Virus record (IMG/VR): IMGVR_UViG_3300021091_000091
Location: 1-55,329 of that record
Reading direction: 5' to 3' (one strand)
DNA from: a virus
Taxonomy: Duplodnaviria > Caudoviricetes
DNA: 55,329 nt
This document shows positions 1 to 55,135 of this stretch, one piece after another. Below the pieces are notes generated by a model that searched no databases, was not told where the DNA came from, and saw only the letters and a program-made list of their open reading frames with translations. The first letter of the stretch is position 1. Every line of letters starts with the position of its first letter. A program made the translations under genes and the position numbers.

Positions 1-89
1 TCCAAAGCGATTTTAGCATTAGCAATAGCAGTTTCACGAACAGCTTTAGCATCAGCAATTGCTTCTTTTAACAATTTTGAACTTGCCAT
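1..89 (-). CDS. N-terminal fragment of probable prohead core/scaffolding protein (runs off left edge)
   Basis: ATG at 89-87 gives MASSKLLKEAIADAKAVRETAIANAKIAL..., which is helical and has an LKE site. It lies downstream of the prohead protease, where T4-like phages place the scaffold and major capsid genes. Confidence 0.6.
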   Translation of the reverse strand, partial: MASSKLLKEAIADAKAVRETAIANAKIAL

Positions 90-286: not shown

Positions 287-1312
287 TTATCCTTTGCGTT
301 TGATAGATGATAGTTGGTCTAAATCGTAATCAGCGTACATAGAACTAACTTTATTATCAAGTTCTATTTCTAATTTTTGCTTTTGTACATTTAACTTTTT
401 AAGGTTTTCAACATTTTGTTTTGCCTTATCAGTTCCTTTATTTAATTTATATTTTTCTAATTCAGATTGAATTGCCATCAATACTTTAGCTATATCATTT
501 TGAATACCAGCAACACCTCTAGCTTCATTTACTACTCCTTCGGGTACACAATTTGGAACTTGCTTACCACCTTTGTTTTTCATTCCAACTTGCTTATATC
601 CTTTCCAACAAGGACCTGCTTCACTAACTACTTCTTCTCTGTGTGGTGCTTTAATTCCGTAATCTTTCTTTATATCAGATAGTCTTTGTAGTATTCCTTT
701 TAGAGTAGTTTGAAACTTCATTTTTTGTTCTGGATTTTTTGTAGATGAAATTTTATCTCTAAGTTTTTTTACTCTATCGTTATATCTTTGTATTTTTTCA
801 CCTGTTGTTTTTGCAGGTTCTTCATTTATTTTTTTTATTTTTTTATACCAATTCATAGTTGATAAAGTAGCATCTATATTAGCTTTAAGGTTTTCTTTTT
901 CTTTAGGATTTTTAGATTTTGTTAGCATGTTTTGCAAACTCTTAATACTTCTTTGCAAATCTTTCATTAATTGTGCATCCATATCCTCATTAATACCTTC
1001 GTTTGAATCACCATATTCATGATAATTTCCAGATGCTTGAGAAATATAGTTTTCTGCTTTAGAAATATGGTCTTGAATCCAAGCTGGGATTTGTTTTTCA
1101 TCCTTACCCATTTTAGCTTTTAATTCAGTTGCCATTTTAATAATAGTATCTAACTGATTTTGTCCCATAGAAACTTCGTGGTCTTCACCTTCAGCTTCAT
1201 TTACAGGTTTAAATGCACTTGCGTATGGATTAGAATATACTTTACCATATTCAAATTTCTTACCACCCATAGTAAAAGAACCCTTTCCAGCTAAATCAGT
1301 TAAACGAATCAT
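287..1312 (-). CDS. Putative internal head polyprotein (short modules separated by (V/I)xE sites)
   Basis: MIRLTDL leader. Modules begin after PVNE, GINE, KINE, VVSE and VVNE, e.g. AGPCWKGYKQVGMKNKGGKQVPNCVP and DHEVSMGQNQL...PAWIQDHISKA. Lies in the head operon. Confidence 0.55.
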   Translation of the reverse strand: MIRLTDLAGKGSFTMGGKKFEYGKVYSNPYASAFKPVNEAEGEDHEVSMGQNQLDTIIKMATELKAKMGKDEKQIPAWIQDHISKAENYISQASGNYHEYGDSNEGINEDMDAQLMKDLQRSIKSLQNMLTKSKNPKEKENLKANIDATLSTMNWYKKIKKINEEPAKTTGEKIQRYNDRVKKLRDKISSTKNPEQKMKFQTTLKGILQRLSDIKKDYGIKAPHREEVVSEAGPCWKGYKQVGMKNKGGKQVPNCVPEGVVNEARGVAGIQNDIAKVLMAIQSELEKYKLNKGTDKAKQNVENLKKLNVQKQKLEIELDNKVSSMYADYDLDQLSSIKRKG

Positions 1313-1315: not shown

Positions 1316-1873
1316 TTATTTCTTTTTCATTGCAAGTCTTTCTCTCATTACATCGGTTGGGATATCAGAGATTTCATAGTAACGATTTAAGATGTGACCC
1401 ATATCTTCATATAAAGCGTGTAATCTTTCATCCATTGCTTTTGCTTCTACTGAGAACTTATCAAATTGTTGCCCCAATTTTTGCAATTCCAACATATTTC
1501 TTTTTACAGTTTGAGCATCAAACCAATCGTTAGCCTCTCTCAATGATAATTCTTTTGCAGCCTCAACGATTGCACCCAATGTTTCCGCAACTTCAGTCAT
1601 ATCTGAATTGCGCTTCATTTGGTCTTGGAAAGTATTATAAGTTGAAATGATTTCTAAGAAATGCTTTTTAACTTCTAAAGAAAGTTTTCTATCAGGTTGT
1701 TCTAAGTTCTCTTTAATAGAAAACTTACCGTCTTTAATCTTTATTTCATTAATTGCAGTCTTACGAATATCATTATATCCCTTAGCTACTTTAGTTACAT
1801 ACTTTGGTTCTTCAACTTTTAGTTTAAATCTATTGTTGTGAACGTATGTGTATAAATCAAAATTCTTATTCAT
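1316..1873 (-). CDS. Hypothetical head-module protein, helical
   Basis: 185-aa ORF tightly coupled downstream of the prohead protease; contains AINE, IKE and LRE sites. Confidence 0.5.
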   Translation of the reverse strand: MNKNFDLYTYVHNNRFKLKVEEPKYVTKVAKGYNDIRKTAINEIKIKDGKFSIKENLEQPDRKLSLEVKKHFLEIISTYNTFQDQMKRNSDMTEVAETLGAIVEAAKELSLREANDWFDAQTVKRNMLELQKLGQQFDKFSVEAKAMDERLHALYEDMGHILNRYYEISDIPTDVMRERLAMKKK

Positions 1874-1874: not shown

Positions 1875-2471
1875 TTACGCTATTTCAGTTATAATTTCTC
1901 TCATTAAATCCTGTGCCTTGCAGTATTCACCACATACATCAGTACCAATTTGTTTTAGTGGATTTACGGATTCATTCATTGGGACCATAAATGCACCATG
2001 TGTAGATGGATTTGAAACAAAATCCCAACCAATTAATTCAAAATCTTCTTGTACTTCAACTCTATTTCCGTTAAGTGGTTTTGTAGAACCCATACCTCTT
2101 GATGAAATACCTAATAAGATACCTGCTTTTAATAATTCTTTAAGAATATTACCAGAAGGAGTTCCTAAAATTTCTACAGTACCACATAGGTCATCACCAT
2201 CCCACCAAATTTCTTTTATATTATGAGATACATTTTTGAGGTTGATAACTGTAGAATCGGGATGGTCTAATTCACCCAATGCTCTACGCTCCTTTATAAA
2301 AGTTGAATGATATTTCTTAGCTTCTCTTTCTAAAATTGGTTTTGGATATACCCTTCCATTTTGGTTTTCCGCACCAGCTCTTTGTAGAACACCTTTGACA
2401 ATCGTTCTACCAACTTCATCTTCTTTTACCTTACCTTCAAATAAGTGTGTTTCTATTAAAAGAGACTTCAT
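1875..2471 (-). CDS. Prohead core protease, T4 gp21-like (peptidase U9/S77-type)
   Basis: Motifs NQNGRVYP, ALGELDHP, VSHNI, GISSRGMGS and WDFVSNPSTHGA are characteristic of gp21-like proteases. Confidence 0.93.
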   Translation of the reverse strand: MKSLLIETHLFEGKVKEDEVGRTIVKGVLQRAGAENQNGRVYPKPILEREAKKYHSTFIKERRALGELDHPDSTVINLKNVSHNIKEIWWDGDDLCGTVEILGTPSGNILKELLKAGILLGISSRGMGSTKPLNGNRVEVQEDFELIGWDFVSNPSTHGAFMVPMNESVNPLKQIGTDVCGEYCKAQDLMREIITEIA

Positions 2472-3148: not shown

Positions 3149-3703
3149 TTACAATTTTCTCATTTTTTCCGTAATTCCCATTAACCTTTCTCTGATTTTG
3201 TATAGGGCTGCATTTGTTCTTTTCCAGTAATCTTCTTTTTTAAGTCCGTTTTCAGTCTTAATTTTAGAGTACCAATTTACAAACTTCTCTATTTCAGAAA
3301 GTTGTTTATGTATATTAGAAACACCCCTACCAACTTTTGCTTTTGGTGAGGACATTTCTCTTTTTAATTCTAACCAACGATTTTCAGCTACAATCATTCC
3401 ACTAATATCCGCTACTTTTTCATTATCAATTTTTTTAGCTGCGGTTGGTTTTAGAGGAAGTCCTTCTTTTCTACTAGCAGGTACATCACCTAATGCATAA
3501 TCTTTTTCACCTTCTTTAACAATCGTACCACCTGTAACACTAGCCAATCTTTTATTTTTCTTTTTCTCAGAGCCAGGCTTTGTAAATGCAGCAGGTGTAT
3601 CGTAACCTGCAATATCTCCTGTTACTGTCATTTCTTCCAAAGTTTTTTGGATATATTTTTCTCTGATATACTTACGAATGGCCTCTTTTAATCTAGCTTC
3701 CAT
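3149..3703 (-). CDS. Hypothetical head-associated protein
   Basis: 184 aa; RLKE, TLEE, IVKE and IVAE junctions; lies between portal and protease. Confidence 0.5.
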   Translation of the reverse strand: MEARLKEAIRKYIREKYIQKTLEEMTVTGDIAGYDTPAAFTKPGSEKKKNKRLASVTGGTIVKEGEKDYALGDVPASRKEGLPLKPTAAKKIDNEKVADISGMIVAENRWLELKREMSSPKAKVGRGVSNIHKQLSEIEKFVNWYSKIKTENGLKKEDYWKRTNAALYKIRERLMGITEKMRKL

Positions 3704-4572
3704 TATTTTATTTTGGATTTTAGTTCTTTAATAAGCTCATAAGAAAGCATTATTGATGAAACTTGAGAATCAGATACAGTTTTTCCAATTTTCATTTTAT
3801 CTAAAATGGATATGGTTTCTGAAAGTTTGATTTGTGTAACTTTATCTTCTAATTTTACTTTAATACCCTCTAATTCAGAAATTATATTTGGTAATTCTTT
3901 TCCAACATAATCTGTAAATTTAGTGGTATTAGTAATATTATTGATATATTCTTTCAACAAATTTTTTTGTGAATTGTCTAAATTAGTGTATTTTTTGTTG
4001 AAAGTTTCTACTAGAATCTTATATGTAAGTAATCTAAGGTCTTTATCTTGTTGTTTATAGGATTCAATCAATTTTTTATCTTCGGTTGGTTGAGTTTGTT
4101 GAGCTGGTTTAGAAGTGATGTTTTCAATTAGGGTAATTTTAGAATTAAAGATATCTTTGATATCATATCCTTCTGCTCTTTTAGATTCGAATACTTTATA
4201 TATAGATGCTAATACTTTATAGTTAGAAATAGGGGAACTAAGGAATTGTTCAATTTCAAATTTTGCTGAAATTTCTTTAATAAGATTATATTTTTCTTTT
4301 GAAAGATTGGATATATTAAGTTTACTATGTGCATCACACACAGTTTCTACTAATTTATCAGCTTTTGTTTCTGAATTATATTTTTCTTTAAGAAGTATAT
4401 CATATAGACGTAATTCTTTGTTCAACTCCGTATTAGGAGCAAAGAATTCAGCCACTATTTTCTTTGCGTTTTCAGACTTATCTCCATTAAGAATTTCAAG
4501 CGTTATCTGCCTTACTAAAAGCTCAAATAACACTCCAGTATTCTTAAACTTTGAGTGTTTAATTTTTTTCAT
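3703..4572 (-). CDS. Hypothetical helical protein downstream of portal (possible prohead core component)
   Basis: 289-aa ORF (MKKIKHSKFKNTGVLFELLVRQIT) with its own promoter motif; position between portal and protease. Confidence 0.5.
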   Translation of the reverse strand: MKKIKHSKFKNTGVLFELLVRQITLEILNGDKSENAKKIVAEFFAPNTELNKELRLYDILLKEKYNSETKADKLVETVCDAHSKLNISNLSKEKYNLIKEISAKFEIEQFLSSPISNYKVLASIYKVFESKRAEGYDIKDIFNSKITLIENITSKPAQQTQPTEDKKLIESYKQQDKDLRLLTYKILVETFNKKYTNLDNSQKNLLKEYINNITNTTKFTDYVGKELPNIISELEGIKVKLEDKVTQIKLSETISILDKMKIGKTVSDSQVSSIMLSYELIKELKSKIK

Positions 4573-4613
4573 TTACTTACCCTATATTTATTCTACCCTA
4601 TAAATTAACACAT

Positions 4614-6422: not shown

Positions 6423-6860
6423 TTACCATTTTCTACAAGACCAATATCTTGCTTTTGTTCTCGGACCAGGATTATCACAATTGTGTCTAGCTCTAAAGTT
6501 TGCTCTCCTGCCAGGGTTATTCTTTTTGATTTTCATACCCTTCTGACCGAAGTTTACTTTAATAACTTTACCAGTCTTAGGGTTTTTTACATATACCTTA
6601 AATTTCTTTACATCACCGGCTGTTGGTTTACCCAATTTTACCTCTCTACCTTGATACTCTGCTTCGTAAACACAACCACAATTAGCCTCATCTAATGAAG
6701 TTTGATAAGATTTAAGATATGCAATAAAATCATCCATATCTTCTTGCTCAACATCTAATTCATCATAATCATCTAATGGGTTATCTGCCGGTGTATCTCC
6801 TTTTGAGTATGCTTTATCAATATACTCATCTTCTTTTAGAATATTTGTTAGTTTAATCAT
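6423..6860 (-). CDS. Putative internal head protein with leader; basic C-terminal Cys/Trp module
   Basis: MIKLTNILKE leader, then an acidic spacer, then VYE|AEYQGREVKLGKP...RRANFRARHNCD...ARYWSCRKW. Confidence 0.55.
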   Translation of the reverse strand: MIKLTNILKEDEYIDKAYSKGDTPADNPLDDYDELDVEQEDMDDFIAYLKSYQTSLDEANCGCVYEAEYQGREVKLGKPTAGDVKKFKVYVKNPKTGKVIKVNFGQKGMKIKKNNPGRRANFRARHNCDNPGPRTKARYWSCRKW

Positions 6861-9266: not shown

Positions 9267-11801
9267 TTATTTTTCGAAGAAGATACCTAAAATCTGATTT
9301 AGCGGTGCAAATGCACCTGTCAGTTTATAAGTGTTTCCACCATATACAAATACAATACCCTCATTTGGTACAATCTTATCAAATCCGCCTAAAGCATTTA
9401 ATCTCTGCAATTCTAATTTAAGTTTTTGTACTTGCTTAGGGTCACCACTTGCTTTTACCTGTTGTATAGTAGATTCCAATCTACTAACCATTTGTCTTTT
9501 TGCAGCTTTTGGATTTGCTGTAAGAACTGAACTCATAAACGAAAGAACTTCTGCCCCAACCCCTAAAAATATTTCTTCAAACTTCATTAGATTTTGTTTT
9601 GATATTTTTTGCTGGTCTTGCTTATCAGTCTGCTCAGCCCAAGCTTTTAATTTAACATCTTGAATTGTATTAATACGGAATGATTTATCACCAAAAGCCC
9701 ATCTTTTAACTAATCCTATTTTTTCTTGTGTGTCTAATTTTTTTGCACTTTTTTCTACAAATTTTGTCCACCAAGCTTGATGATAATCCGCAACACCATC
9801 CGAATCTACTAAATTAAATTCAGACTGTAATTTAGAAATCATTGAAATATATTTTCCTTGTAACTTAGAAAGTTTTTCTGATTTTGGGAGTTTTTGCATT
9901 GGTGGTCCTTGTATTGTGTACTTAGATTGAACATGTCCATTTACCTGTTTAATCATACCAGCCAATATTTTAGCGGCTTGTTGATTTTCTCCAATTATAT
10001 TTCCTTCTTTATCATATTCAAATGTTCCGTGAAATACTAGCAAAGGTTGTCCATAAGGAATTACGTTTACGGATGTTGGGTAAATTACTTCTAAGTTCAT
10101 AAAACAACTACCACCTTTGAATATCATTTTACGTTGTGGCTCTGATAAGGCTGATATTGCTTTTGATAAATCCGTCATTGCGAAATTATATGCATCTGTC
10201 AATCCACCCCTTCCTCCAAACTTTTGTGCAACTTGCCCAATAGTCATTGCACCTTCACCTTTATTTTTGAGATGCGATTTATTTCTTGCAGCAACTAATC
10301 TGCCATTTACCCAACTAATCGCCAATGCCTGTCCATCAGTTTTTTCTCTTGCTAATTCTAAATCACCATTTAAAGCTCTTACTACAATTTGTTTAAGGTC
10401 ACCAAATGTTAATCCCATTTCAATATCAAATGGGTGTGCCATATGACCGTATGCACCACCTTCTAATAAAAGAGATTCATCAATAGGTTCATATTTTTCA
10501 CTATCTTCTTTATCTAATTTGGATTTTAATTTCTTTACATCTTTTGGATTTGGTGCTCCATTAATATATCCATTCGGTAAACTTAAACCAACACCGGCTC
10601 CACCTGGCAATCCCATTTCATCCAACAAAGATTGTTCAAGTTCATCAATAATTTCGTTTATTTCTTCTTTTGATATTATTGTAGGTTTTTGATTTTTAGG
10701 TAGTTCCCAAAATCTTTTAGGTTTTTCTAAAGGAGTTTCTCTTTTCACTTCTTGCCAATCTTCTACGGTATGGGGGTCATCAGCTGGGTTAAGGGTACTT
10801 TGTAAAACATTTTGTACCTTATAATATGCTTTTCTAAATTGAGTTTCAGTATCTTTTGATTTACCCTTACCTCTCATAGCATCTGCTTTTGGTATAGCCA
10901 ATTGTGTATATCCACCTTGTTTATACCAATTTTCAGGTCTATTTTTGCCAAGTATTCTTTTTTGCCCATCAGCAACAAATGATGTGTCCGGTTCTTCACC
11001 GGCTGTAAAACCTGGTCCCGATACTTCATTTAATTTATCTTTTTTTGGAATTCTAAATGTTACGGCTTTTTTACCATTAATTGTTGGCATTCCATATTCA
11101 TCTTTGCTAATAGATTTTACAACAACTTTTTTGTTCTTAAATCTTCCCATTAATATAGTATCACCAACTTTCACATTCAATTTAATTTCTTCATTAATAA
11201 AATCTTTGAGAGTTTTAAGTTTAAGCGTTATTAATTTAAATACCTTTTCATCAAACTTAGGATAAGCTTTTAAAAATCCTTTTTTTCTTTCAGCTTCAGA
11301 ACCCGCACTTAACCAATAACGAACATCAGTACCACTAATAGGATTTGGTTGTGCTGGGGATGCGTACACATAACCTCGTTCTAAATAAGGTTCGATAACT
11401 TTTCCTTTATATTGTACAAAATATTTTCCGCCTAAACGGTCTTCATCTTTTTCTCCAACTACAGTAATAAAACCAGTAGTATCTTCATCAAATTTATTTA
11501 ATATTTCTTCTGGCGCATAAGGGTTTCTAACATTAACAATTTTGTTTGGTGAAATACCAAACATTTTTGTCATAATTACTTTTTTTTCGTTAAAATTAAA
11601 TGGAGATTTTTTTGAATCGGTTATATTTGATGTTCCAATATAAACGTTATCTTTCCCAAACTTTTTGATTAAGTGTTCAAAAGTTGCGTAGTGACCCTTA
11701 TGAAATGGTTGAAAGCGGCCCGAATAGACAACAACCACTTTATCTATCTTTGCCGCTTCTTCCAATATTGTTTCAACTAAATATTTTGTTAATCCCTTCA
11801 T
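9267..11801 (-). CDS. Multidomain polyprotein: HxGH cytidylyl/adenylyltransferase-like domain, small modules, and C-terminal ligase-superfamily nucleotidyltransferase-like domain
   Basis: N-terminal YSGRFQPFHKGH...ISGTDVR is a class I nucleotidyltransferase pattern. C-terminal EKTDG, NLEVIY, EGIVF and YKLTG resemble ligase motifs I, III, IV and V. Domains are bounded by ILEE, INEE, LNE, LDE and LLE. Confidence 0.7.
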   Translation of the reverse strand: MKGLTKYLVETILEEAAKIDKVVVVYSGRFQPFHKGHYATFEHLIKKFGKDNVYIGTSNITDSKKSPFNFNEKKVIMTKMFGISPNKIVNVRNPYAPEEILNKFDEDTTGFITVVGEKDEDRLGGKYFVQYKGKVIEPYLERGYVYASPAQPNPISGTDVRYWLSAGSEAERKKGFLKAYPKFDEKVFKLITLKLKTLKDFINEEIKLNVKVGDTILMGRFKNKKVVVKSISKDEYGMPTINGKKAVTFRIPKKDKLNEVSGPGFTAGEEPDTSFVADGQKRILGKNRPENWYKQGGYTQLAIPKADAMRGKGKSKDTETQFRKAYYKVQNVLQSTLNPADDPHTVEDWQEVKRETPLEKPKRFWELPKNQKPTIISKEEINEIIDELEQSLLDEMGLPGGAGVGLSLPNGYINGAPNPKDVKKLKSKLDKEDSEKYEPIDESLLLEGGAYGHMAHPFDIEMGLTFGDLKQIVVRALNGDLELAREKTDGQALAISWVNGRLVAARNKSHLKNKGEGAMTIGQVAQKFGGRGGLTDAYNFAMTDLSKAISALSEPQRKMIFKGGSCFMNLEVIYPTSVNVIPYGQPLLVFHGTFEYDKEGNIIGENQQAAKILAGMIKQVNGHVQSKYTIQGPPMQKLPKSEKLSKLQGKYISMISKLQSEFNLVDSDGVADYHQAWWTKFVEKSAKKLDTQEKIGLVKRWAFGDKSFRINTIQDVKLKAWAEQTDKQDQQKISKQNLMKFEEIFLGVGAEVLSFMSSVLTANPKAAKRQMVSRLESTIQQVKASGDPKQVQKLKLELQRLNALGGFDKIVPNEGIVFVYGGNTYKLTGAFAPLNQILGIFFEK

Positions 11802-20400: not shown

Positions 20401-23400
20401 ATCTACCATAAGTTCCTGCCGCACCTTGCTCATACAATCCAAGAAAAATACCCGGTCTGTCATATCCTATTACACCTGTACCGCTAGTTCCAGCTGCTCC
20501 AGATGTAGATGGATTTATACTTGTTCCACTTGTACCACCCGTACCAACAGTACCATGCTGACCTAACGAAATATATGGGTCTGACCTACCACCAGCTAAA
20601 ACAATATTAGCGTATTTTGATGTATTATTGTATGTGCCAACATTTATCGTATTCCTTACATATGATTCTTCAAATATTGCCAATTTTGCTGAAACAAAGA
20701 AATCTTGACTTCCTAAAAATTCCCACCAATCATTATCACCTGACGGAGTAGGTGCATGATAATTTACTAATACTCCGTTTTGGTCATATGTTGTGGGACC
20801 TGAACCACTTATAGCTGCATAGTATTTTACATCATCTTGCGTTGCTAAATATGTCACCGCATCTCTACGATTATTTGTAGTCTCAACTCCACCAATATAA
20901 TCCAACGTCGGGTCCCACTCACCTCGCATCACTATACCTGGTCCTGTTTCACCCTCAAATTGTACTGATAAAGATTGGGTTTTATAAATTGATTGTCTAT
21001 CTTCACAAATTATTTGGTAAACTATGATAGCAGTTCTATTTGTTTCAGGAGTATTCCAACCTGTAACACCCGCCATAGTTGCTGTTGGGGTACCTGGCAA
21101 ATAACTTCCAGCAGTCAATCCCCCACTTAATGTAAGATGACCGGATACTGCAGATATTTGTACTCTATATTGTTGTTCATATGATGAACTTCCATATGCA
21201 TCAGTTTGTGGTGAAGTAAATCCAGCAGGTTTATTTGTTAATGCAAGAGTACCTCTATTTGCAAAAATTTGCGTGCTAGTATTAGCGAGTGTCATCTCAC
21301 CAGAAACTTTATATACAGCTGCAGCATTCTCTCTTGTTAATTTTACATCATATGGTGCTGGTTCTGTAAATTGTACTGCAAATGATTGAGTTACAAATTC
21401 TGTATATCTAGTGGGTGGTGCTGTTCCTAAATTTGTAGAATATCCTTCAAATTCTATTTTATAAACAACCTCTCCACTTTTATTAATTGCTGGTTTTTGC
21501 CAACCAGTTATATTACTAAGAGATGCCGGATTTGTTAATATCTTATTTGATGATAAAGTAATGTAAGGTGATTTTGAAAAAATTGATGCTGAAGAAAATC
21601 CCAATATACCAATTAAGTTATTTAAATAGTCATAATCGGTTGCCTGTGGTGATGGGTATGCTGCTGTTATGACATTTTGCAATTGATTAACACCCTTGAA
21701 TGTAGGTAATTTAATTGCTGTTCCTTCAAAGTTTGTAGTGAATAAATCTGCAGTAATTGATGTATTTAGATTATCAGCAGATACTTTAAATGCATCAGCT
21801 CCCGCTTTTATACCAGCTATTGTTAATTGAGCTTCAGCTCTATAAGGATTATATATAGAAGAAGTATATGGATTACCATCAGTTAATTTTACTCTCCAAG
21901 TTTTATTTTCACCAGGTCCTGCTGCATCGGTGGCTGGAACAATAAATGTATAATAAGGTACACCTTCATAGTAAGGCCCATCATATAAGGTTTCACTACC
22001 ATCAGTATCAATATAAAATAGTGTAAACCAAGTTGAACCTGTATAATTTTGTGCTAACGCTTTTAATTCAACATCCCCATCTGGTGCTACTTTGTACCCA
22101 TCTCTATTATAATTTATAGTATAAGGATTTGCATTTAATTCTACTGTTCTTGCATTTGGAACTGAAACATTTTTTGTAAATGTTTGTGTTCTTTCAAATA
22201 TAGAAGATGTGTATTCATGCCCTGCCCCTAAAGCGAATGGAAATACTTGTATTGTATAAATTGCACTTGCAGATACATGTGGATAATCAAATCTATTAAA
22301 ATTAATCGTTGCTGTACTTAATGATGATGATGATAAAGAGCCAGTTCTTATGTAATAAGGACCTGCAGAACCTAATTCCACAGCTTTAGTTTCTATTAAA
22401 TTTATTCTGAATGTTCCGGCCGCAGTAGATTGAGTTGTAAATGTTAAAAAATCATCACCTTCTTTTACTCTGATTGTTGTATTAGCATTTGTATGTGAGG
22501 ATACAAATCCTACTTCATCAGCGGGTATAGATACTGATGTTGGTGAAATTACAATTTGAATTGGAGGAGGTCCATCTAATACTTTGGTATAATTTACTAC
22601 AACACTAGCAGTATATATAGATGATGTGAAATATGGATGAATTACTAATGGGTATGTAATACTTCCACTTAGATTAGTAAAATTTGATGATTGGGATACA
22701 ATAAGTGATGCAGTATATTGAGTACCAAAAGATGATGTAAAATGTATATTACCAGCTTTGACATTCCTTTCTATAATAGATGAACTTGCTATATAAAATT
22801 GTCCATGTGAATAAAATGGGTCATAAGCTGCACTTGAACTAAATACCAAATATCTTGCCCCTTGTTTTAATCGTATATCAGTAATACTGGGTTTAAAATC
22901 ATTTACAACTCCACGTGAATTAGCTGCTAATGTAATTGTAGATGGATTGACCTCAAATATAATTGTTTCATCTCCTGGCGTACCCTGTGGTACGATTGTA
23001 AATGTTTTATCTACTGAAATTGATGCAGTATCTAATGATGGTGAAGAATATGGTTCAGTATAAGTAAATTTGATTGTAATATTTTTACTCTGAGATAGTG
23101 GTGAACGCACTGAAGAATTCAAAGCCCCAGCTGCAATTGTTCTTTGATTTTCATCAATTGCAATTACTGAAATATCCGGATGTACACTTTGGGTTGTAAA
23201 ATAAAACCAATATTCAGGAATCCAATTTTGATTTATTGACATTGATGGAAATACTCTAAATGATGCAGTTATTGCATTTGTTCCACCCCTTTCAAAGAAA
23301 GATGCTGTAGCTATTGCTGATTGAGGTCTGAAAATACTTTCATTTCTTGGGTCTATATTAAAAGTATCTGCATTAAATAAAACAAAAGGTGTATCCAAAC

Positions 23401-25840
23401 CATCTTGTAAATCCTCTAAAATAATTGTTGCCAAAATAGATCCTGATGTTTCAAATGCTGGGCCAGATGCTGCTGATGCTGATGACATCATAAAAATTGT
23501 TCTTCTTACATCAATTGAATCTCTATTAAAAATAGCATTATAATTTATTTGGCCACTACCCAAAGAACCGCTTGTTAAACCTATAACTAAACCACTTGAT
23601 GATGCATAAGCAAGGTTTACAAATTTTTCATTTCCTTCAAAAGAGCGTGATATAATGTGCAATTGTGTATCAGGAAATCCTTTTTCAGGTTTAGTTAAAC
23701 TACTTAATTCAATATCATTAACACCATCAATACGAATGGCTTGAATTTCCAAAGACGATGTACTACTATTCCTTATTTGTGTACCTCTATATGGTCTTAT
23801 AACAAAATTTACGCCCCCAAATCCATCTAATACTCTTGTGAATATTACAGTATCAGTAAATCCTTCAGCTTCTCCAGTAATTTTTACTAATTGTACAATC
23901 TTATCAGTTCTTGAGCCGGTAAAGTGTTGCACTGTCATTGTTGGAGCATCAGATGTTATACCATCCAATAGACCAGGAAATCCACCACCCACAGTTATTG
24001 ATGATGTATAATCATTACCAAATAATTCAGTACCATCAAAGTCAAAAGATTGAGATGTGTATGTTACCGAACCCGTTAATAAGTTTTTGGTAACTGTAAA
24101 CCCTACTACTGTAGGTGGTACAGGATTGGAACCAGAATCAAACTGAAATTGTAATGAGCGTGGTGTAAATACTAATCCTTTTTGTATTGTTTGTAAATTA
24201 CCTCCATTAAAAGTTTTATTTGCTTCAACTAAAACGGGTATAAAATTATTATTGATATCATAAAATTCAAATCTATACAAAAAAGTTTCTTCAGGTAAAC
24301 TTCTTGGGACACTTTGAATAAATGTAATTGAATCTGGTGAATATGAAGTCTCTTGAGATGCTCTTAAACTAACATCCGCTAAATGCCAACCATTTCCTTT
24401 TATTTCAAAATAAAGTTTTGCGTTGTTAATTTGTTCTGCTTTAAAATTAGCTGATAATTGATTTTTTTGTAATAGAGAACTATCTGCTGTTATGGTTGAT
24501 ATATTTTGGTTTATTTGTATAGTAGTAGGCGAACCATTAATTGATGATTGTCTTGAACCACTTAAAAATACATTAATATAATTTCCAGCTAAAACTTGAT
24601 TACTACCAATTCTTACATTAAAATTAAGTGAATATTCCGTATCTTCGGTTATATCTAAAGACTTTGAGGTATAAAAATTATTAATACCAGAACTATCTAA
24701 TTTTATAGAATTAAATAAATAATTTTGATTAAATGATGTTGTTAGATTATTAGATGATGTTACCCAATAATTTTTAAAATTTGTATTATCAAAAATACCA
24801 TAAAATTCTTCATTTTTTATGGTTGATTCTAAATCTCTTAATAATTCATTTGATTCTAATCTTATTTCTTGAATAAATTGATAATCAGCTAAATCTGATT
24901 GAGATTTTCTAAATATTTTTACTCTTGCACAATCACCCACAAATGTTGTTATATCACTTAAATTAATTTTAGCAAAAGAACCCGTCAAAGCTGTCTTTAA
25001 ATTATTTGCACCTTCAATATAATTAAATGATGCTGTATATCCTTCGTTTATAAAATTTTGAACTAATCCATTTGAATCTGTGTGGGGTTTTAATACTAAA
25101 ACGTTTTTATTATTTATCACACTATCTACTAATGGAGAATAATTTAAATTAGGAATAGAGATAGTTGTACCAATAACTGAGCCAGTCCAATTGGTAGAAT
25201 CATTTATTTTTAGTAAATAGCTTGTAGGTATTGTAACATCAGTTATTTTTTGTCCTGCTATTGGAGATTGGGCTATACCATTTAAAGAACCAGTCTGAAT
25301 TATAGTAGTTGTTACATTATTAAAAATTGGTTTTACTATTTCATCAATATTAACAACAGGTCTTCTATAAAATCTAACTTTATCTTCATTTGATAAAAGT
25401 TTATTTATCTGAAAAGTTTTTTCCCATTTTACATTGTAAACATCTTTCCAATCATCAGGAATAGGAAGTGTAACACCACTTTCATCAATAAATGTTTTTA
25501 GTTCACCTAAAATAGTTATTTTTGCAGTTCCGATTGGAGTATCATCATAGATATATACAGCAATCAATTTTGATGTACCTTCGTAATATTCTGGTATTCC
25601 ATTACCTGGCTCATAATATATAGAATTTCCCTCAACATCTAAAATTTGAATTTTTACTTCTGTAGATTCTTTGAGATGTTCACTTCCTTCAATTAAAAAT
25701 CCGTTTTTGCCACCAGTAAAAGTATCCTTAAATTCTGTAATTTTGAAATATTTAGAATTCGGGTTTGTATCTACTTCAAATACGCCAAAAGATGTTAGAT
25801 TTTGTGATAAATTTTCTGCAAATTTTTTTATTACAGGCAT
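17486..25840 (-). CDS. Giant tail fibre / receptor-binding protein (2784 aa)
   Basis: Ser/Thr/Gly-rich beta-type repeats; CBM5/12-like W..G..Y...D.V.Y motifs; C-terminal GYSKLVNGLILQAG...VTFPLAFPTKCLAV...GYWIAVGY fibre tip domain; followed by a chaperone. Confidence 0.85.
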   Translation of the reverse strand: MPVIKKFAENLSQNLTSFGVFEVDTNPNSKYFKITEFKDTFTGGKNGFLIEGSEHLKESTEVKIQILDVEGNSIYYEPGNGIPEYYEGTSKLIAVYIYDDTPIGTAKITILGELKTFIDESGVTLPIPDDWKDVYNVKWEKTFQINKLLSNEDKVRFYRRPVVNIDEIVKPIFNNVTTTIIQTGSLNGIAQSPIAGQKITDVTIPTSYLLKINDSTNWTGSVIGTTISIPNLNYSPLVDSVINNKNVLVLKPHTDSNGLVQNFINEGYTASFNYIEGANNLKTALTGSFAKINLSDITTFVGDCARVKIFRKSQSDLADYQFIQEIRLESNELLRDLESTIKNEEFYGIFDNTNFKNYWVTSSNNLTTSFNQNYLFNSIKLDSSGINNFYTSKSLDITEDTEYSLNFNVRIGSNQVLAGNYINVFLSGSRQSSINGSPTTIQINQNISTITADSSLLQKNQLSANFKAEQINNAKLYFEIKGNGWHLADVSLRASQETSYSPDSITFIQSVPRSLPEETFLYRFEFYDINNNFIPVLVEANKTFNGGNLQTIQKGLVFTPRSLQFQFDSGSNPVPPTVVGFTVTKNLLTGSVTYTSQSFDFDGTELFGNDYTSSITVGGGFPGLLDGITSDAPTMTVQHFTGSRTDKIVQLVKITGEAEGFTDTVIFTRVLDGFGGVNFVIRPYRGTQIRNSSTSSLEIQAIRIDGVNDIELSSLTKPEKGFPDTQLHIISRSFEGNEKFVNLAYASSSGLVIGLTSGSLGSGQINYNAIFNRDSIDVRRTIFMMSSASAASGPAFETSGSILATIILEDLQDGLDTPFVLFNADTFNIDPRNESIFRPQSAIATASFFERGGTNAITASFRVFPSMSINQNWIPEYWFYFTTQSVHPDISVIAIDENQRTIAAGALNSSVRSPLSQSKNITIKFTYTEPYSSPSLDTASISVDKTFTIVPQGTPGDETIIFEVNPSTITLAANSRGVVNDFKPSITDIRLKQGARYLVFSSSAAYDPFYSHGQFYIASSSIIERNVKAGNIHFTSSFGTQYTASLIVSQSSNFTNLSGSITYPLVIHPYFTSSIYTASVVVNYTKVLDGPPPIQIVISPTSVSIPADEVGFVSSHTNANTTIRVKEGDDFLTFTTQSTAAGTFRINLIETKAVELGSAGPYYIRTGSLSSSSLSTATINFNRFDYPHVSASAIYTIQVFPFALGAGHEYTSSIFERTQTFTKNVSVPNARTVELNANPYTINYNRDGYKVAPDGDVELKALAQNYTGSTWFTLFYIDTDGSETLYDGPYYEGVPYYTFIVPATDAAGPGENKTWRVKLTDGNPYTSSIYNPYRAEAQLTIAGIKAGADAFKVSADNLNTSITADLFTTNFEGTAIKLPTFKGVNQLQNVITAAYPSPQATDYDYLNNLIGILGFSSASIFSKSPYITLSSNKILTNPASLSNITGWQKPAINKSGEVVYKIEFEGYSTNLGTAPPTRYTEFVTQSFAVQFTEPAPYDVKLTRENAAAVYKVSGEMTLANTSTQIFANRGTLALTNKPAGFTSPQTDAYGSSSYEQQYRVQISAVSGHLTLSGGLTAGSYLPGTPTATMAGVTGWNTPETNRTAIIVYQIICEDRQSIYKTQSLSVQFEGETGPGIVMRGEWDPTLDYIGGVETTNNRRDAVTYLATQDDVKYYAAISGSGPTTYDQNGVLVNYHAPTPSGDNDWWEFLGSQDFFVSAKLAIFEESYVRNTINVGTYNNTSKYANIVLAGGRSDPYISLGQHGTVGTGGTSGTSINPSTSGAAGTSGTGVIGYDRPGIFLGLYEQGAAGTYGRLSIKDYSGDNYMKWDGEALILSGLLNAGGMKLGRGVNGANNGLYLNANNYWYDTGTNFKVGGSSNYLEWDGTTLTLRGSLKQTPGGVNEGRIMGPWASGTIYYTNDIVTYSGNTWTANSDHTSTNNTSAATGYPGFGPWTIAPISAKLLRLEASSQVFIEAQNGTLSPDWVELNSNKQNISATTNWTTSPSVTLYDASSGGNVTTTGNTVFLRKADFGVNTLVEISATADSITDTVTIARVQEGTDALTIFLTNESHTLPASSAGVVSDYNGSGTNIFIYEGAIQLDYDGAGTAAGKFTVSTAVSNITAGSITDGGNYAIVGNHSNMTANLASVTYTLTGKKLNGDSFSIAKVQSLTKSIAGAAGATGAAGAGVVYRGRWTVGRTYTKTSTRVDVVQGADGAYYLAKSTHTAGAGQDPTGGAGITGTPATYWESFGATFSSVATDVLFAQDVYANRTVNVGSSGSVAVIQLNADSANSGSNPFISVGQSYTGSSGFDQYGIFLGLLSGSAKMSLKNTAGDNFMKWTGNSLEIQGSVNITDGRIGGGIGSEVWQVDGGLLYASASVGQIKLNADRPAIEIYDSASNLRVDINPNGQLSTTVAITTPISASASPNIVQENYATAESANNSSNSPFVVFFDTNPMVSSSASPNSASFYVPSSAEGLAAIITVTTSGNSFTSADVVGSGTISSGQMTQTYGVRVFAVPQTYIGPEETIATKIAYATKTQSFGYLAQVDMEVNLTNTFVIPVTLKGGYFYRIQTFSSYLEAQYDFLPDIDVLPPPYIDGQVYNDANWGGGDGQSPKSPVLNTVSVNIAQSKTELIAGGMQIVYDNTRFVKMPRAESGAVLIVSGGLDVGGTITNFPGYVTSSNYYAVPPGGFFNGVFSHGANTGYSKLVNGLILQAGYVSTAGNSAANVTVTFPLAFPTKCLAVTCATDRNSDGSRGFNHVYDVTAANAKLVLDAGGDGYWIAVGY

Positions 25841-50408: not shown

Positions 50409-51221
50409 TTATTTTGTGATTATCTCAATCTTAATCTTTGGTTGATAATCTTTTGGTAATTTATTATTTATACCCTTAAATACTTTTACTTTATCCTTAA
50501 AGTAAGTTATTTCTATTATTTTGTCTGTCAAATTCATTACAGTTTGGGAAGATGTAGACATTTCGGATGTATCTCTTTTCATATTAAGTTGGGGTCTATT
50601 TGGAAAAAATTCTTTTCTCATTGCTGCTGCTATTTCTTTCCAATCTTCCACTGTATTAACTGATTTTTCAGCCGATATTTTTCTCATTTTTGATGACAAA
50701 TATTTTTCTCCACTTGTATATCCTGCATCAGTAAAAAGATGACCATGATTTGTACGAACAACAGGTGATTTGGAATTTTGTAATTGTACATCCGGCTTAT
50801 GCTTTGATGTAGTTTCAATACTAACCATATGTTTTGGAGATGATACAAATGTATGCCCTTTAAGAGATAATCCACTCTTACCCTTATAAGATATTGTAGC
50901 TCTGATTGCATCTATGAGTGTTGGTTGTTTTAAAATGTTTCTCATCTTGTCACCATCTGGCCCAGGCTTACCCCCTTTTTTAACTATCTTAGCTTCTGCT
51001 TCATCGTGCCCCACTAATAAAGCAGAGTTTACCACTCCAATTCCATACTCATTAAGACCCTCACTCCAATCAGTAATTAAATCATGTAAATAAGCAACTT
51101 CCACACCATCTATAATAGTATGTACAATTTCAAGTTCTGGATTATACATTCTATCCCTATTTTTAGCAAGAATAAATTTATCACCAACTTCTTTAGATAC
51201 AATAATACATTCGTTTATCAT
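50409..51221 (-). CDS. N-terminal nucleophile (Ntn) Cys hydrolase (C45/C59/NRDE-like)
   Basis: MINE-CIIV...FILAKNRDR...WSEGLNEYGIGVVNS...VRTNH...SSKMR...T.SQ.VMNL match the Ntn hydrolase pattern. Confidence 0.8.
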   Translation of the reverse strand: MINECIIVSKEVGDKFILAKNRDRMYNPELEIVHTIIDGVEVAYLHDLITDWSEGLNEYGIGVVNSALLVGHDEAEAKIVKKGGKPGPDGDKMRNILKQPTLIDAIRATISYKGKSGLSLKGHTFVSSPKHMVSIETTSKHKPDVQLQNSKSPVVRTNHGHLFTDAGYTSGEKYLSSKMRKISAEKSVNTVEDWKEIAAAMRKEFFPNRPQLNMKRDTSEMSTSSQTVMNLTDKIIEITYFKDKVKVFKGINNKLPKDYQPKIKIEIITK

Positions 51222-51763
51222 CTTACAGTACTACTAAATGATTTTTTTAAATCATATGTTTGTGAAAGGTCTATAACCTGTAATCTTAGTTTTGTCAAAC
51301 CATGCTTTTGTTTAAGAATATCCATTACTTTTTTAGCTTCTGGCATATTCTTAGCTTTTGTATATGCTACAACTTCATCCTTTTCGCCAGGCGGAACACC
51401 CCATATAATAAACTCTTTTTCTTCTTTTAGGAATGATTTTAATGTTATTGTTTGTTCACTTTTTTTAATACTATTTATAAAACTTCTATATACAGCAGCT
51501 GCTGAAACTTTACCTGCTGCTTTAGCCCTCTGTTCCATAGCAATTGCTGCCTGTATTTTGTGAGCGTGTGGTTTTCCACTATTTTTTATTTTATTTACGC
51601 TACTTTTTGCATCTTTAACCGTAGCGAACTTTAATCCATGAATTGTCCCTTTGGGATTTTCATCAGTATATAAATCACTATGATTTGAACTACCCTTATG
51701 TTGACCTGATTTTCGTGGTATTCTATTATTTGCTTCCTTTAATAATAATTTTAAACTTATCAT
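51218..51763 (-). CDS. Putative internal head polyprotein (two leader-bearing modules)
   Basis: MISLKLLLKE leader, plus a second internal ITLKSFLKEE before module KEFIIWGVPPG.... Confidence 0.55.
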   Translation of the reverse strand: MISLKLLLKEANNRIPRKSGQHKGSSNHSDLYTDENPKGTIHGLKFATVKDAKSSVNKIKNSGKPHAHKIQAAIAMEQRAKAAGKVSAAAVYRSFINSIKKSEQTITLKSFLKEEKEFIIWGVPPGEKDEVVAYTKAKNMPEAKKVMDILKQKHGLTKLRLQVIDLSQTYDLKKSFSSTVR

Positions 51764-52335
51764 ATACTTGGTAATCCTTGTGCTTTTGCAAATTTATTTA
51801 TAAACCTTTTTGTTGTTCCATCATTTAAAACATTTACCCATTCTTTAATGGCCTGTCTTGTTATTACATTTTTCCACTGCTTATAATTTGATACCATTCC
51901 AAAATTTGAACCTGGCGTTGGTATATCTCTACTATCTTTTGTTTTATCAGGATATAATTCTGAAAATACTTTATCTAATTTTTCTTGTGCTATTTTACTT
52001 TCTAACCATCTACTAACCAAACTCCTTTCGTATTCTAATTTAGAAAAATCTATCTTTTGTTTTTCACCATTATTTCTAGCTTTCTCAATTTGCTTTTCAA
52101 ACTCTTTTAATTTCTTATCATTTTTAAGAGTAAAATAAACATACTTATTAAAATTTCCATCATCTAAAGAATCCAACCATTTAATATGTGGATTTCCAAC
52201 AAACTTTTTATATTCTGATTTATTTCTGAATCCTCTAACCACCATTGAAATTGTCCACATTATAAATTGAGCTGCAGCAAATATTAAAAGTTCTTGTAAA
52301 AAGCCTTCGTTCAATATTTTTTTTAATCTAATCAT
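51760..52335 (-). CDS. Leader-bearing protein with a hydrophobic (possible transmembrane) segment
   Basis: MIRLKKILNE-GFLQE-LLIFAAAQFIMWTISMVV. Confidence 0.55.
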   Translation of the reverse strand: MIRLKKILNEGFLQELLIFAAAQFIMWTISMVVRGFRNKSEYKKFVGNPHIKWLDSLDDGNFNKYVYFTLKNDKKLKEFEKQIEKARNNGEKQKIDFSKLEYERSLVSRWLESKIAQEKLDKVFSELYPDKTKDSRDIPTPGSNFGMVSNYKQWKNVITRQAIKEWVNVLNDGTTKRFINKFAKAQGLPSI

Positions 52336-53741
52336 TTTAATTCGGCGTTTTTTAATTCTCTTGCTAAATCATGCATAATTCTTTTTGTAAATTGAACTGA
52401 ATCTTTACCTAAAAATGATATACCTGAAATGTTTGTAATATCTTTATGTCCACCTGATTGTTTTACAATTAAATCGTATGCTGAAATGGTTATTGTTTCT
52501 AATTTTTGTTTTTCAGGCTCAGTAAGATTATTATAATGCTTTTTGGAAATTGCATCTATTAAATCTTTTTTATCATCATTAGGTATTCCTTTTGCTTCTT
52601 TACCAAATAATGCGGATAGGTCTTTTAGTGTGAATCCAAAAGAACGTTCAGAACCTAAAGTAAGTATATCAGATTCCATTTTCTTTTTTATATCTCTAAA
52701 TGTAAGTTGTTTACTGTCTAAATAACTTTTATATTTTTTTAATATCTTCATCGCTATATCACCCAAATTAAATTGATTTACACCCTTTTTAAATGGATTT
52801 TTTGAAGCTTGTACTAATCCCATAGGATATCCTAAAATCATATAATGAGCATCAGGATTCGTTTTAAATGGAATATATCTATCATACCCACCACCTCTAA
52901 GATTACCCATACCATATTGAACAATTACATTACCAACTTTTCCATAATTTCCATTTTCCAAGTTTTCAATATCTCTATTACGAGATAAATCCCTTTGCAT
53001 TTTTTCAGGTCTTTGAGAATGAATATAAACTGCTTGTGGAATATCTAAATCTTCTGGTTTTAATCCTGCTGCTTTAGCGTTTTTCATAGTAACATTAAAA
53101 ATACTAATCAAAGATGGATTTGCTTCCATTACTATTTTTTCTAAAAATCTTGGTTGATTTTTAAATGCTAATAACACTTTATTTGCAACAAATCCCATAG
53201 CCACTCTATTTTTTGAAGATGATTTACTTCTATCATACTTAAAAGCTGTTGCTATAAATTCATCTACATCAATTCCTTGTCTTGCAAAATCCGCTGAATC
53301 AACTGTTGAAATAATTTTTATATCTTCGTTTGGAAATATATCATTCGGTGAAAGTTCTTGAGAAATTGTTTCTACGTTTGATGGTTTCTTTTTAAAGCTA
53401 GATGCAGTTCCTCTTTCTACTCCACTTTGAGATTCATGATGGTCAGTATGTATTGTTACACCTGGTTTTCCGTGTGCAAAATCTACTAAAACAACCATAT
53501 GACCTGGAGTTGGTTTTGGTGCAGAATATTCTCTACCACCATATTGTATGTGCTCAGCATTTACAACTTTTATACCATACCTTTCTAAGTATGCTTTCAT
53601 TCCGATTGCACTTGTTACTCCATCCAAGTCCATATGAAAGTATAAATCAGCCTTATTATTTTCTTTTGCTAATCTTCGTATATCTCTAATTCCGGATTCG
53701 GTGAGTAATACCTCATTTAACAAATTAGAAAGCTTAATCAT
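52332..53741 (-). CDS. DHH-family phosphoesterase with leader peptide
   Basis: YFHMDLDGVTSA (motif I), VLVDFAH (motif II), IHTDHH (motif III), STVDSAD, and C-terminal SGGHK (DHHA1-like). Confidence 0.82.
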   Translation of the reverse strand: MIKLSNLLNEVLLTESGIRDIRRLAKENNKADLYFHMDLDGVTSAIGMKAYLERYGIKVVNAEHIQYGGREYSAPKPTPGHMVVLVDFAHGKPGVTIHTDHHESQSGVERGTASSFKKKPSNVETISQELSPNDIFPNEDIKIISTVDSADFARQGIDVDEFIATAFKYDRSKSSSKNRVAMGFVANKVLLAFKNQPRFLEKIVMEANPSLISIFNVTMKNAKAAGLKPEDLDIPQAVYIHSQRPEKMQRDLSRNRDIENLENGNYGKVGNVIVQYGMGNLRGGGYDRYIPFKTNPDAHYMILGYPMGLVQASKNPFKKGVNQFNLGDIAMKILKKYKSYLDSKQLTFRDIKKKMESDILTLGSERSFGFTLKDLSALFGKEAKGIPNDDKKDLIDAISKKHYNNLTEPEKQKLETITISAYDLIVKQSGGHKDITNISGISFLGKDSVQFTKRIMHDLARELKNAELK

Positions 53742-54202
53742 TATCCCTTACATTTCCTCCAGCTACCGCCTTTTCCTTTGTAATTTTTTGCAGCCCATCC
53801 ATTTGCGTACGCTGATGGATAAACATCAAACTTCTTTTTAGCTGCTGCTTTAGATGCTGCCCATTTACCCGGATCGGTTGGACAATTCTTTTCTAAGAAT
53901 AATTCCATTTTTTGTTCTACAGTTAATACTTTTTCCATATTTTCGTTTTTCTTTTTCTTTTTACCAGCACAATGTGCTTTTTGTGAGAATCCTTTTGGGT
54001 TACTACAATTTATAGATTTTTTATATTTTTGTGACCAACCTTCTTTTACTTTTTTTGGTTTTTCTTTTTTAAATGGATTTGGATTTTCTTTACTACCTCT
54101 ATAATCATAAGCAAATTCATGCTTTTCTGGATTTACTTTTTTGACATCGTATTTCTTTCCAGTTTCTCTATTTTTAACAAATATATCAGATAGACGTATC
54201 AT
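53741..54202 (-). CDS. Putative internal head polyprotein of short basic modules
   Basis: MIRLSDIF leader; VKE|GWSQKYKKSINCSNPKGFSQKAHCAG; FLE|KNCPTDPGKWAASKAAAKKKFDVYPSAYANGWAAKNYKGKGGSWRK. Confidence 0.55.
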   Translation of the reverse strand: MIRLSDIFVKNRETGKKYDVKKVNPEKHEFAYDYRGSKENPNPFKKEKPKKVKEGWSQKYKKSINCSNPKGFSQKAHCAGKKKKKNENMEKVLTVEQKMELFLEKNCPTDPGKWAASKAAAKKKFDVYPSAYANGWAAKNYKGKGGSWRKCKG

Positions 54203-54549
54203 TATTCTCCAGTTTTTTCTTTTATAATTAACTCACCTAAAACTTCTAATAATCCAACTATTTTTTGAAATTGTACTGCATCAGGTTTTTCACTTGCCAT
54301 CAATTTATGCAAAGATTCCATATATTGATTATAAGATGAAGTTGCTTTTTCTAAATTAAACTTACCTTCTGCTGCTTCTTTATAGTGTGGAAGTTTTACT
54401 ACAAAGTGTTCATATGTAAGAATTGCAGGTCCACCTTTAGCTTTTGCATCAGATGCTATCTTAGTTGCACCGTCCAATCTCTTATTTGCAAAATCAGATA
54501 TTTTCATATCCTCAAATTCTTCTTTTAATATTTCAGATAATTTAATCAT
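54202..54549 (-). CDS. Leader-bearing hypothetical protein
   Basis: MIKLSEILKEE leader; helical body. Confidence 0.55.
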   Translation of the reverse strand: MIKLSEILKEEFEDMKISDFANKRLDGATKIASDAKAKGGPAILTYEHFVVKLPHYKEAAEGKFNLEKATSSYNQYMESLHKLMASEKPDAVQFQKIVGLLEVLGELIIKEKTGE

Positions 54550-54863
54550 TATGCACCTGTTTTTACAAATGTTGGTTTTTGACCTTTTGATTTTTCACCA
54601 CCTTTCTTACTATCTCCTGCCTTAGATTGAGCTGCTCTTTTTCTTTTTACAAATGATGCTCTACCATCAGGCCCTAACTTAGCTGCTTTATCTTTTGATA
54701 AACATGCCGCATATGCCGAACCTTTTTTACTATCACCACACTTACCTACTTTCTTACCTTTGGAATCATATCTATCCCAACCACCTCCGGATGATGAACC
54801 ACCACCACCTTTACCAAACCATTTACGAAGGTCTTCTCCTATTATATCTCTTAGCAGTATCAT
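54549..54863 (-). CDS. Leader-bearing small basic Gly/Lys-rich protein
   Basis: MILLRDIIGE|DLRKWFGKGGGG...GWDRYD...GKCG...AACL...RKRAAQ. Confidence 0.55.
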   Translation of the reverse strand: MILLRDIIGEDLRKWFGKGGGGSSSGGGWDRYDSKGKKVGKCGDSKKGSAYAACLSKDKAAKLGPDGRASFVKRKRAAQSKAGDSKKGGEKSKGQKPTFVKTGA

Positions 54864-55135
54864 TAGAATGCTATTGTTACGATTTCATTATCTATTTCCA
54901 CCCAACGAACTCTGAGTGATACTAATTTTTTCATATCATCGGCTTCAAGTCTATATCCGTTTCCCATTGTTTGTCTTGCTTCAATATCAACAATATATCC
55001 GTGAATACCTTGAAAAATTTGTGTATTTTCTCCACCAATTATTTTTTCAAAAGCCATTACTTGCTTTTTTCTTTGTGGGTCCAGTTGATTAAACTGAATT
55101 TCTTCCGCTTCGTTGAGTTGTGTAAGTCTAATCAT
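54863..55135 (-). CDS. Leader-bearing hypothetical protein
   Basis: MIRLTQLNE|AEE leader. Confidence 0.55.
   Translation of the reverse strand: MIRLTQLNEAEEIQFNQLDPQRKKQVMAFEKIIGGENTQIFQGIHGYIVDIEARQTMGNGYRLEADDMKKLVSLRVRWVEIDNEIVTIAF

Follow-up and report, generated by a model that had tools for sequence, protein, structure and literature searches.

The 55,329-nt stretch of viral DNA described here (IMG/VR record IMGVR_UViG_3300021091_000091; the whole stretch is called the window) has a G+C content of 30% and holds nearly all of its genes on the minus strand. It comes from a T4-like phage: the portal, the large terminase and the S77 prohead protease were all of T4 type when the window proteins were searched with Pfam, and baseplate wedge proteins, a primase and SbcCD were recognised from PHROG matches. 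The portal was 23-49% identical to those of cultured phages, the nearest being Microcystis phage Mel-JY01 (49%) and Flavobacterium phage immuto (47%), which places the phage on a distant T4-like branch. Our subject is a run of eight minus-strand genes, from 55135 down to 50409, most of which open with nearly the same ten codons' worth of peptide, together with the prohead protease that may remove this leader. The eight genes overlap at all seven junctions, by 1 nt at four of them and by 4 nt at three. The protease (1875..2471, minus strand) had been called gp21-like in a preliminary description of this DNA, and this was borne out by Pfam (PF03420, Peptidase_S77, 6.4e-30) and by phrog_207 (2e-52). 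Its gene was present in 560 IMG/VR stretches, the best 80 of which were 84-100% identical to it, and its own N-terminus carries L-I-E at residues 5-7.

The shared N-terminal leader

All leaders quoted in the preliminary description were found at the minus-strand starts assigned to them. A start of the form MI(K/R/S/L)L was present in 9 of the 46 called genes, and seven of these lie in a single overlapping run (51218-55135). Against the frequency of I.L at internal positions (0.0063 per position), the binomial probability of such a count was about 1.5e-11. The N-terminal 10-mers were also compared without reference to any motif, and 13 pairs were identical at 5 or more of the 10 residues; the control 10-mers of residues 22-31 and of residues 42-51 each gave no such pair, and shuffled sequences gave a mean of 0.52 with a maximum of 3. 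Chance as the cause of the shared starts was rejected on the binomial probability and on the 13 pairs against none. The bodies behind the leaders were unrelated, no pair being found among them by blastp at E<0.01. The 10-mer statistics and this blastp result together upheld the earlier statement that consecutive, overlapping genes with unrelated bodies open alike. No MI.L start was found in the other 36 window genes (primase, SbcCD, sugar, tail and baseplate genes), in agreement with the claim that the primase, SbcCD, sugar and most tail genes are without the leader; the motif was thus not equally frequent at the N-termini of replication and tail genes.

The consensus leader is 10 residues long, M-I-(K/R/S/L)-L-x-x-(I/L)-(L/I)-x-E. 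Little or no variation was found at L4, I/L7, L/I8 and E10, and positions 3, 5, 6 and 9 are variable. The tripeptide (I/L)-x-E was located at residues 8-10 in six of the nine window leaders and at residues 7-9 in one, and two had none. At internal positions the full motif occurred just twice in 271,453 residues of the phage and its relatives. At the level of codons, Ile2 was encoded by ATT six times and by ATA three times, and Leu4 by TTA four times, CTA three times and CTT twice; pairs of codons for the same leader residue were identical in 62 of 139 cases, which is near the genome-wide expectation. Since synonymous codons are free at the invariant residues, selection appears to act on the peptide and not on the DNA or mRNA. 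A DNA-level cause of the shared starts was rejected on this codon variation, which also disfavoured the bias in translation initiation of an AT-rich genome that the preliminary description had set against its own proposal. The leader proteins were also more basic than the rest: an isoelectric point (pI) above 8.5 was found in 8 of 10 leader proteins and in 10 of 37 others (Fisher P=0.004), and in a wider set the median pI was 9.5 for leader proteins (n=51) and 6.3 for the others (n=888).

Two enzymes with putative propeptides

The gene at 52332..53741 (minus strand) encodes a 469-aa DHH/DHHA1 phosphoesterase, whose leader, MIKLSNLLNEVLLTE, offers two candidate sites, L-N-E10 and L-T-E15. The Pfam match to DHH was weak (21 bits against a cut-off of 28.1), and the profile of the protein gave no sequence match in the PDB. 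Membership of the DHH family is supported by a fold search, in which Foldseek matched the AF2 model (pLDDT 87.6) to the dinucleotide phosphodiesterases DhhP, TM1595, PggH, GdpP and NrnA and to RecJ. Across 49 sequences the residues H36, D38, D40, D87, D100-H101-H102, D148 and G-G-H 430-432 were invariant, the DHH and GGGH motifs being intact. The enzyme is thus like the DHH/DHHA1 phosphodiesterases and RecJ in these motifs and in fold, but unlike the phosphodiesterases it carries a 15-residue N-terminal leader that is swapped among orthologues. Residues 1-16 of the model had a pLDDT below 50 and formed a detached helix and linker. At least 3613 homologues were found. When 120 of them were read, 114 could be anchored at SGIR, the conserved start of the body, and Glu stood directly before it in 114 of 114, with L, I or V at P3 in 113; the leaders in front were of the class MI(K/R/S)L in 45, M(N/S/D/T)IL in 52 and other in 17. 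No DHH homologue was found in immuto, in Mel-JY01 or in the related contigs G002 and G003, the latter of 274 kb and rated complete.

The gene at 50409..51221 (minus strand) encodes a 270-aa Cys-type N-terminal nucleophile (Ntn) hydrolase of NRDE/TANGO2-like fold, which begins with MINE followed by Cys5. MINE had been counted as one more copy of the leader, a view which we do not share; it is rather a 4-residue propeptide ahead of the catalytic Cys of this hydrolase. No Pfam match at E<0.05 was obtained (AAT, CBAH and NRDE included), nor any PDB sequence match. The AF2 model (pLDDT 74.9) was matched by Foldseek to isopenicillin-N acyltransferase (2x1c, E 3.5e-6), bile-salt hydrolases, penicillin V acylase, NAAA and TANGO2; its first strand begins at residue 6 and is opened by the invariant Cys5.

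In Cys-Ntn hydrolases the catalytic Cys has to be the free N-terminal residue, and in the known members it is exposed through removal of Met or by self-cutting, mostly after a small residue. The window protein is like them in its fold and in having an invariant Cys where the first strand begins, but its propeptide ends in aliphatic-x-Glu, the motif of the phage head protease. Homologues numbered at least 874. Among the 120 best, 97 had a propeptide, 22 had a plain Met-Cys start and 1 was without the region; in all 97 propeptides P1 was E and P3 was I, L, V or M, with 10 different residues at P2 and lengths from 3 to 18. This conservation would be independent evidence of a cut after Glu. In the cultured Chryseobacterium phage MA9V-2, which encodes an S77 domain, the Ntn hydrolase reads ...FINE|C.

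A profile search of 1.84 billion representatives brought in 513 distant Ntn relatives, many of them inside proteins of up to 2792 residues. The motif before the Cys could be analysed in 103 of the best 150 and was aliphatic-x-E in 39, (K/R)-x-(A/G/S) in 60, another in 4 and mixed in none. S77 was present in five of the five genomes tested that have the aliphatic-x-E motif; no S77, S78 or T4-type portal was found in three contigs with the (K/R)-x-(A/G/S) motif, which were 79%, 22% and 12% complete. Self-cutting is conceivable for either of the two motifs.

Leader cassettes in the run, the relatives and the head operon

PHROGs and Pfam assigned a function to none of the other six run proteins, all encoded on the minus strand. 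The 90-aa acidic protein at 54863..55135 opens with MIRLTQLNE, with L-N-E at 7-9, and members of its family in 12 related loci always open with MI(K/R)L..(L/I)NE. It is followed by a Gly/Lys-rich basic protein of 104 aa and pI 10.2 (54549..54863; MILLRDIIGE) and by a helical protein of 115 aa (54202..54549; MIKLSEILKE), for which the protein atlas returned viral hypothetical clusters only and whose immuto orthologue opens with MRLLELLRE. The very basic 153-aa protein at 53741..54202 (pI 9.9; phrog_27331) has the leader MIRLSDIF, with no Glu at 8-10, and a V-K-E at residues 52-54 ahead of a conserved WSQKYK module. The basic 191-aa protein at 51760..52335 has a hydrophobic, transmembrane-like stretch right behind its leader, MIRLKKILNE; the leader was present in every one of the 19 members of this family in related loci.

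The sixth, a 181-aa protein (51218..51763), is a fusion of two cassettes, with the leader MISLKLLLKE at its start and an internal copy, TITLKSFLKE, at residue 105. Its last 77 residues were 92-93% identical to a separate 77-aa gene in 7 related loci, the leader of which is MITLKSLLKE or MISLKSLLKE. The ATG of the free-standing gene is ACA in the window, so that the leader is read through and survives internally. A comparable case was seen in G003, where the 104-aa and 153-aa bodies are combined with a leader and a zinc-ribbon-like module in a single protein of 239 aa; I-S-E stands right before DLRKWF and I-D-E right before WSQKYK. The placing of the motif at these fusion borders fits a release of the modules by the protease.

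The run was compared with 38 related IMG/VR loci found through the Ntn gene, and the survey of open reading frames covered 1149 frames from 42 sources. The stretch upstream of the Ntn gene differed from locus to locus and can be described as a variable cassette array. Loci that keep a conserved 218-aa upstream gene had about 2-6 leader genes between that gene and the Ntn gene; in the other loci the Ntn gene stood in a different context with zero leader genes. A total of 111 MI.L starts was obtained in the relatives, and 98 of them had [ILVM]-x-E at residues 8-10 or 7-9. The bodies behind them fell into 26 single-linkage groups, or about 22 when four chance look-alikes were set aside. The same leader was found on other proteins in immuto (vB_FspM_immuto), in Mel-JY01 and in another IMG/VR contig; in immuto it reads MIKLIDLLTE and MISIYNILKE. 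The proposal that the leader is a portable tag was strengthened by these roughly 22 unrelated families and by the orthologous DHH bodies with different leader classes. The accompanying picture of the cargo as diverse enzymes and peptides held in part: two enzymes are present, but the other six of the eight run genes encode small proteins. At about 37-53 kb in G003, thirteen small tandem genes open with MLTI(E/Q)NI.KL; these are probably a family of paralogues and not a case of a targeting leader.

The same type of start was also described for the head operon, and both of the leaders named there were present, MIKLTNILKE at 6860 and MIRLTDL at 1312, although the latter is without a Glu at 8-10. 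The first belongs to a 145-aa protein encoded between terminase and portal (6423..6860, minus strand), in which the leader is followed by an acidic part and then, at the C-terminus, by a basic part that contains Cys. It has at least 8000 homologues; the leader was kept in 119 of the best 120, and M1, I2, L4, L8 and E10 were invariant in 19 relatives. This protein and the basic product of 53741-54202 have a similar C-terminal Cys-pair motif, N-C-x-N-P ... K-A ... C, which may be a small DNA-binding or metal-binding module. The second belongs to a basic 341-aa protein (287..1312, minus strand) encoded between the protease-adjacent gene and the scaffold; in relatives the same place is taken by a gene of 203-550 aa with an MI(K/R/S)L start. 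The scaffold gene runs off the edge of the window, and only its first 29 residues (3..89, minus strand), opening with MASSKLLKE, are encoded here; full-length scaffolds of 359-385 aa with the same type of start were found in 20 related loci.

Two basic core genes of 184 aa and 289 aa lie in the interval between portal and protease (3149..4572, minus strand) and are rich in [ILV]-x-E, with 8 sites against 3.6 expected and 13 against 7.1 expected, respectively. When 43 window proteins were ranked by the density of this motif, both core proteins and the protease were among the top four. In immuto the scaffold had 21 sites against 14.1 expected from composition (97th percentile) and a 284-aa core protein 17 against 7.6, and in Mel-JY01 the scaffold ranked third of 192 proteins. 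The highest [ILV]-x-E density is thus seen in the proteins of scaffold and core, the expected substrates of the protease. Right after the protease gene, a 185-aa gene (1316..1873, minus strand) has a second type of leader, MNKNFDL, which resembles the N-terminus of the capsid protein in the window's close relatives (MANFDLGKLMEG). Further leader classes were observed in immuto, MKK(S/Q)QL..I(I/V)KE and M.NFDLKKFL.ENKL...L.E, the M.NFDLKKFL class being like that capsid N-terminus and like the start of gene 1316-1873. An 844-aa cytidylyltransferase-like protein (9267..11801, minus strand) opens with MKGLTKYLVE, with L-V-E at 8-10; its Pfam domain begins at residue 25, which leaves a 24-residue extension, and its G003 orthologue opens with MKGLAKFLVE. 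The immuto relative of this protein is annotated as a relative of nicotinamide mononucleotide (NMN) adenylyltransferase, and the protein may be a further, enzyme-sized candidate for cargo.

A probable capsid-targeting propeptide and its alternatives

Knowledge of the capsid-targeting principle in T4 goes back to the 1990s. In the T4 record, IPII and IPIII have a common 10-residue leader that is hydrophobic at positions 4, 7 and 8 and has Glu at position 10; pI values of 8.9-9.5 apply to the three internal proteins. The propeptides of T4 internal proteins are given as 10-19 residues long, the first 10 residues of IPIII as enough for incorporation into the head, residues 4 and 7 as serving targeting and residues 8 and 10 as serving processing (PMC9026906). 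Proteases of the T4 type are reported to cut after Glu, T4 Alt being cut at ITE-6, and several sites per propeptide are reported for T4 and SPN3US (PMC5694885). The window resembles the T4 system, in which the leaders of IPI, IPII, IPIII and Alt are removed by gp21, in its short leader on unrelated basic proteins, in the hydrophobic residues at 4, 7 and 8 with Glu10, in the aliphatic-x-Glu motif, in the phage-encoded S77 protease and in a cargo set that varies while only the leader is kept (for T4: PMC3012670, PMC9026906). It differs from T4 in that eight candidate cargo genes form one overlapping run, in that a DHH phosphoesterase is among the putative cargo, as is an Ntn hydrolase with a nucleophile that the predicted cut would expose, and in that cassettes are sometimes fused with the cut motif retained inside.

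Many head proteins of the giant phages phiKZ, 201phi2-1 and SPN3US, ejection and inner-body proteins among them, are likewise reported to have propeptides that are cut after Glu at a three-residue motif, some with several sites per propeptide, and paralogues with identical N-termini (PMC5694885). They differ from the present case in that the proteases (gp175/gp245) are of the S80 type and the motif is (S/A/G)-x-E or A-x-E, in that the propeptides are often long and in that scaffold and core are not T4-like. No paper on such leaders outside the T-even and phiKZ-like phages was found in the searches made, of which the one on metagenomes returned a single, unrelated paper.

The explanation that we favour, and hold to be probable from the sequences and by analogy with T4, is that the 10-residue leader is a capsid-targeting propeptide of the T4 kind, by which the proteins would be loaded into the prohead, clipped there and probably ejected. 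The hydrophobic face of the leader (residues 2, 4, 7 and 8) would bind the scaffolding core during prohead assembly, so that two enzymes would be enclosed together with a variable assortment of small proteins, most of them basic. The S77 prohead protease (1875-2471) would then cut after the Glu of aliphatic-x-Glu, which would free the bodies and remove the tag, and the same cut at I-N-E|C would expose the catalytic N-terminal Cys of the Ntn hydrolase; we propose that this enzyme would consequently gain its activity only once within the head. Once matured, the proteins would remain beside the packaged DNA and would probably pass into the host along with it. With the principle known from T4, the finding would extend a known kind and not found a new one, and at the level of sequence this extension is well supported.

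Several observations weigh against a propeptide of the T4 kind. The leaders at 54202 and 1312 are without Glu at residues 8-10, one DHH orthologue has Gln at position 10, and the Glu ahead of the DHH body could be structural. Ntn hydrolases often cut themselves, so that I-N-E|C need not be a site of the head protease, and the absence of S77 from the (K/R)-x-(A/G/S) contigs is weak evidence because those contigs are incomplete. The leader sequence differs from that of T4, IPII and IPIII sharing just Met1 and Glu10 with the window consensus. The run adjoins the baseplate genes and lies 44 kb away from the head operon, and the transmembrane-like stretch in the product of 51760-52335 is unusual for a soluble head protein. 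Just three leader genes were found in the complete contig G003, which makes the run accessory, and the 111 MI.L starts in the relatives depend on a simple first-ATG rule, 13 of them having been re-called by us. No virion proteome of any relative was found in the literature; term searches of the text of two MA9V papers returned SDS-PAGE (sodium dodecyl sulphate gel electrophoresis) only or no proteomics, and for Mel-JY01 no paper was found.

Among the other explanations the one that survives best, though we think it unlikely, accepts that the tag loads proteins and is cut in the prohead, but takes the proteins to be assembly helpers, like T4 gp67, gp68 and the scaffold, which would be broken down or driven out ahead of DNA packaging and would not reach the host. 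The two leader genes within the head operon (6423-6860 and 287-1312) and the richness of the core genes in cut sites speak for it. However, proteins that are to be discarded would hardly be expected to include a DHH enzyme with its active site intact or an Ntn hydrolase activated by a cut, the run is accessory with a fast turnover, unlike essential assembly factors, and its bodies are basic, as are those internal proteins of T4 that remain with the DNA. Slightly less credible again is an amphipathic helix with some other role (membrane, tail or baseplate, chaperone or degradation signal), in which the Glu motif would be a coincidence; such a role would suit a run directly upstream of the baseplate module, a member with a transmembrane-like stretch and two leaders without Glu, but it leaves unexplained that [ILVM]-x-E closes 98 of 111 leaders at a constant distance, that in 97 of 97 cases the motif stands immediately ahead of the Ntn nucleophile and that it recurs at fusion borders and tracks with the presence of S77. 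A signal in DNA or RNA, be it the start of translation in an AT-rich genome or a linker through which cassettes recombine, could appeal to the 30% G+C, to the overlapping and probably translationally coupled genes and to the clear exchange of cassettes, but it is highly improbable given the synonymous codons that vary at invariant residues (62 of 139 pairs alike), the lack of MI.L in the other 36 genes and a conservation that reaches residues 7, 8 and 10 with variable ones between.

Beyond the capsid-targeting propeptide itself, a wider scheme can be put forward only tentatively, and we consider it rather doubtful: the head protease may serve as the activating convertase of a cargo that can be re-addressed. 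Tagged precursors and polyproteins with a cut site at every module border would be loaded, would mature only in the head and would then be injected. The Cys of the Ntn hydrolase would be uncovered, and the DHH phosphodiesterase would be poised to break down nucleotides that signal in host immunity. A cargo domain would carry the motif of the local protease, aliphatic-x-Glu with S77 or (K/R)-x-(A/G/S) elsewhere, there often in giant proteins of up to 2792 residues. What the DHH and Ntn enzymes are proposed here to do once injected is speculation.

Should the tag act as it does in T4, the proteins that are carried in the capsid and probably injected could be listed by their N-terminal leader with the motif of the head protease at its end, and such a rule, if true, would apply to the abundant uncultured large T4-like phages. 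Injected proteins act prior to phage gene expression and would for that reason be prime candidates for counter-defence. The Ntn case, if true, would be a new mode of switching on the Cys-Ntn class of enzymes, and it would seem from the fused cassettes that polyproteins of cargo are likewise processed by head proteases.

As to transcription, the T4 late-promoter octamer was matched 16 times in the window against 16.9 expected; it was not enriched, and promoters therefore give no argument for late timing. An AT-rich element, TATAAATA on the plus strand or TATTTATA on the gene strand, was observed in the intergenic gaps at 4613, 11816, 17046, 31996 and 50380, and one copy lies immediately downstream of the leader run and upstream of gene 50357. 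Taken as a whole, the octamer was not enriched in the window; the element may be a promoter that divides transcription units. Elsewhere in the window, a 2784-aa protein (17486-25840) without a PHROG match has a 2479-aa counterpart in the 274-kb relative, with 50% identity over about 1950 residues. In Chryseobacterium phage MA9V-2 the S77 domain (167084-167422) was located inside an open frame of 1213 aa, which suggests that the protease of this phage is fused to other head proteins.

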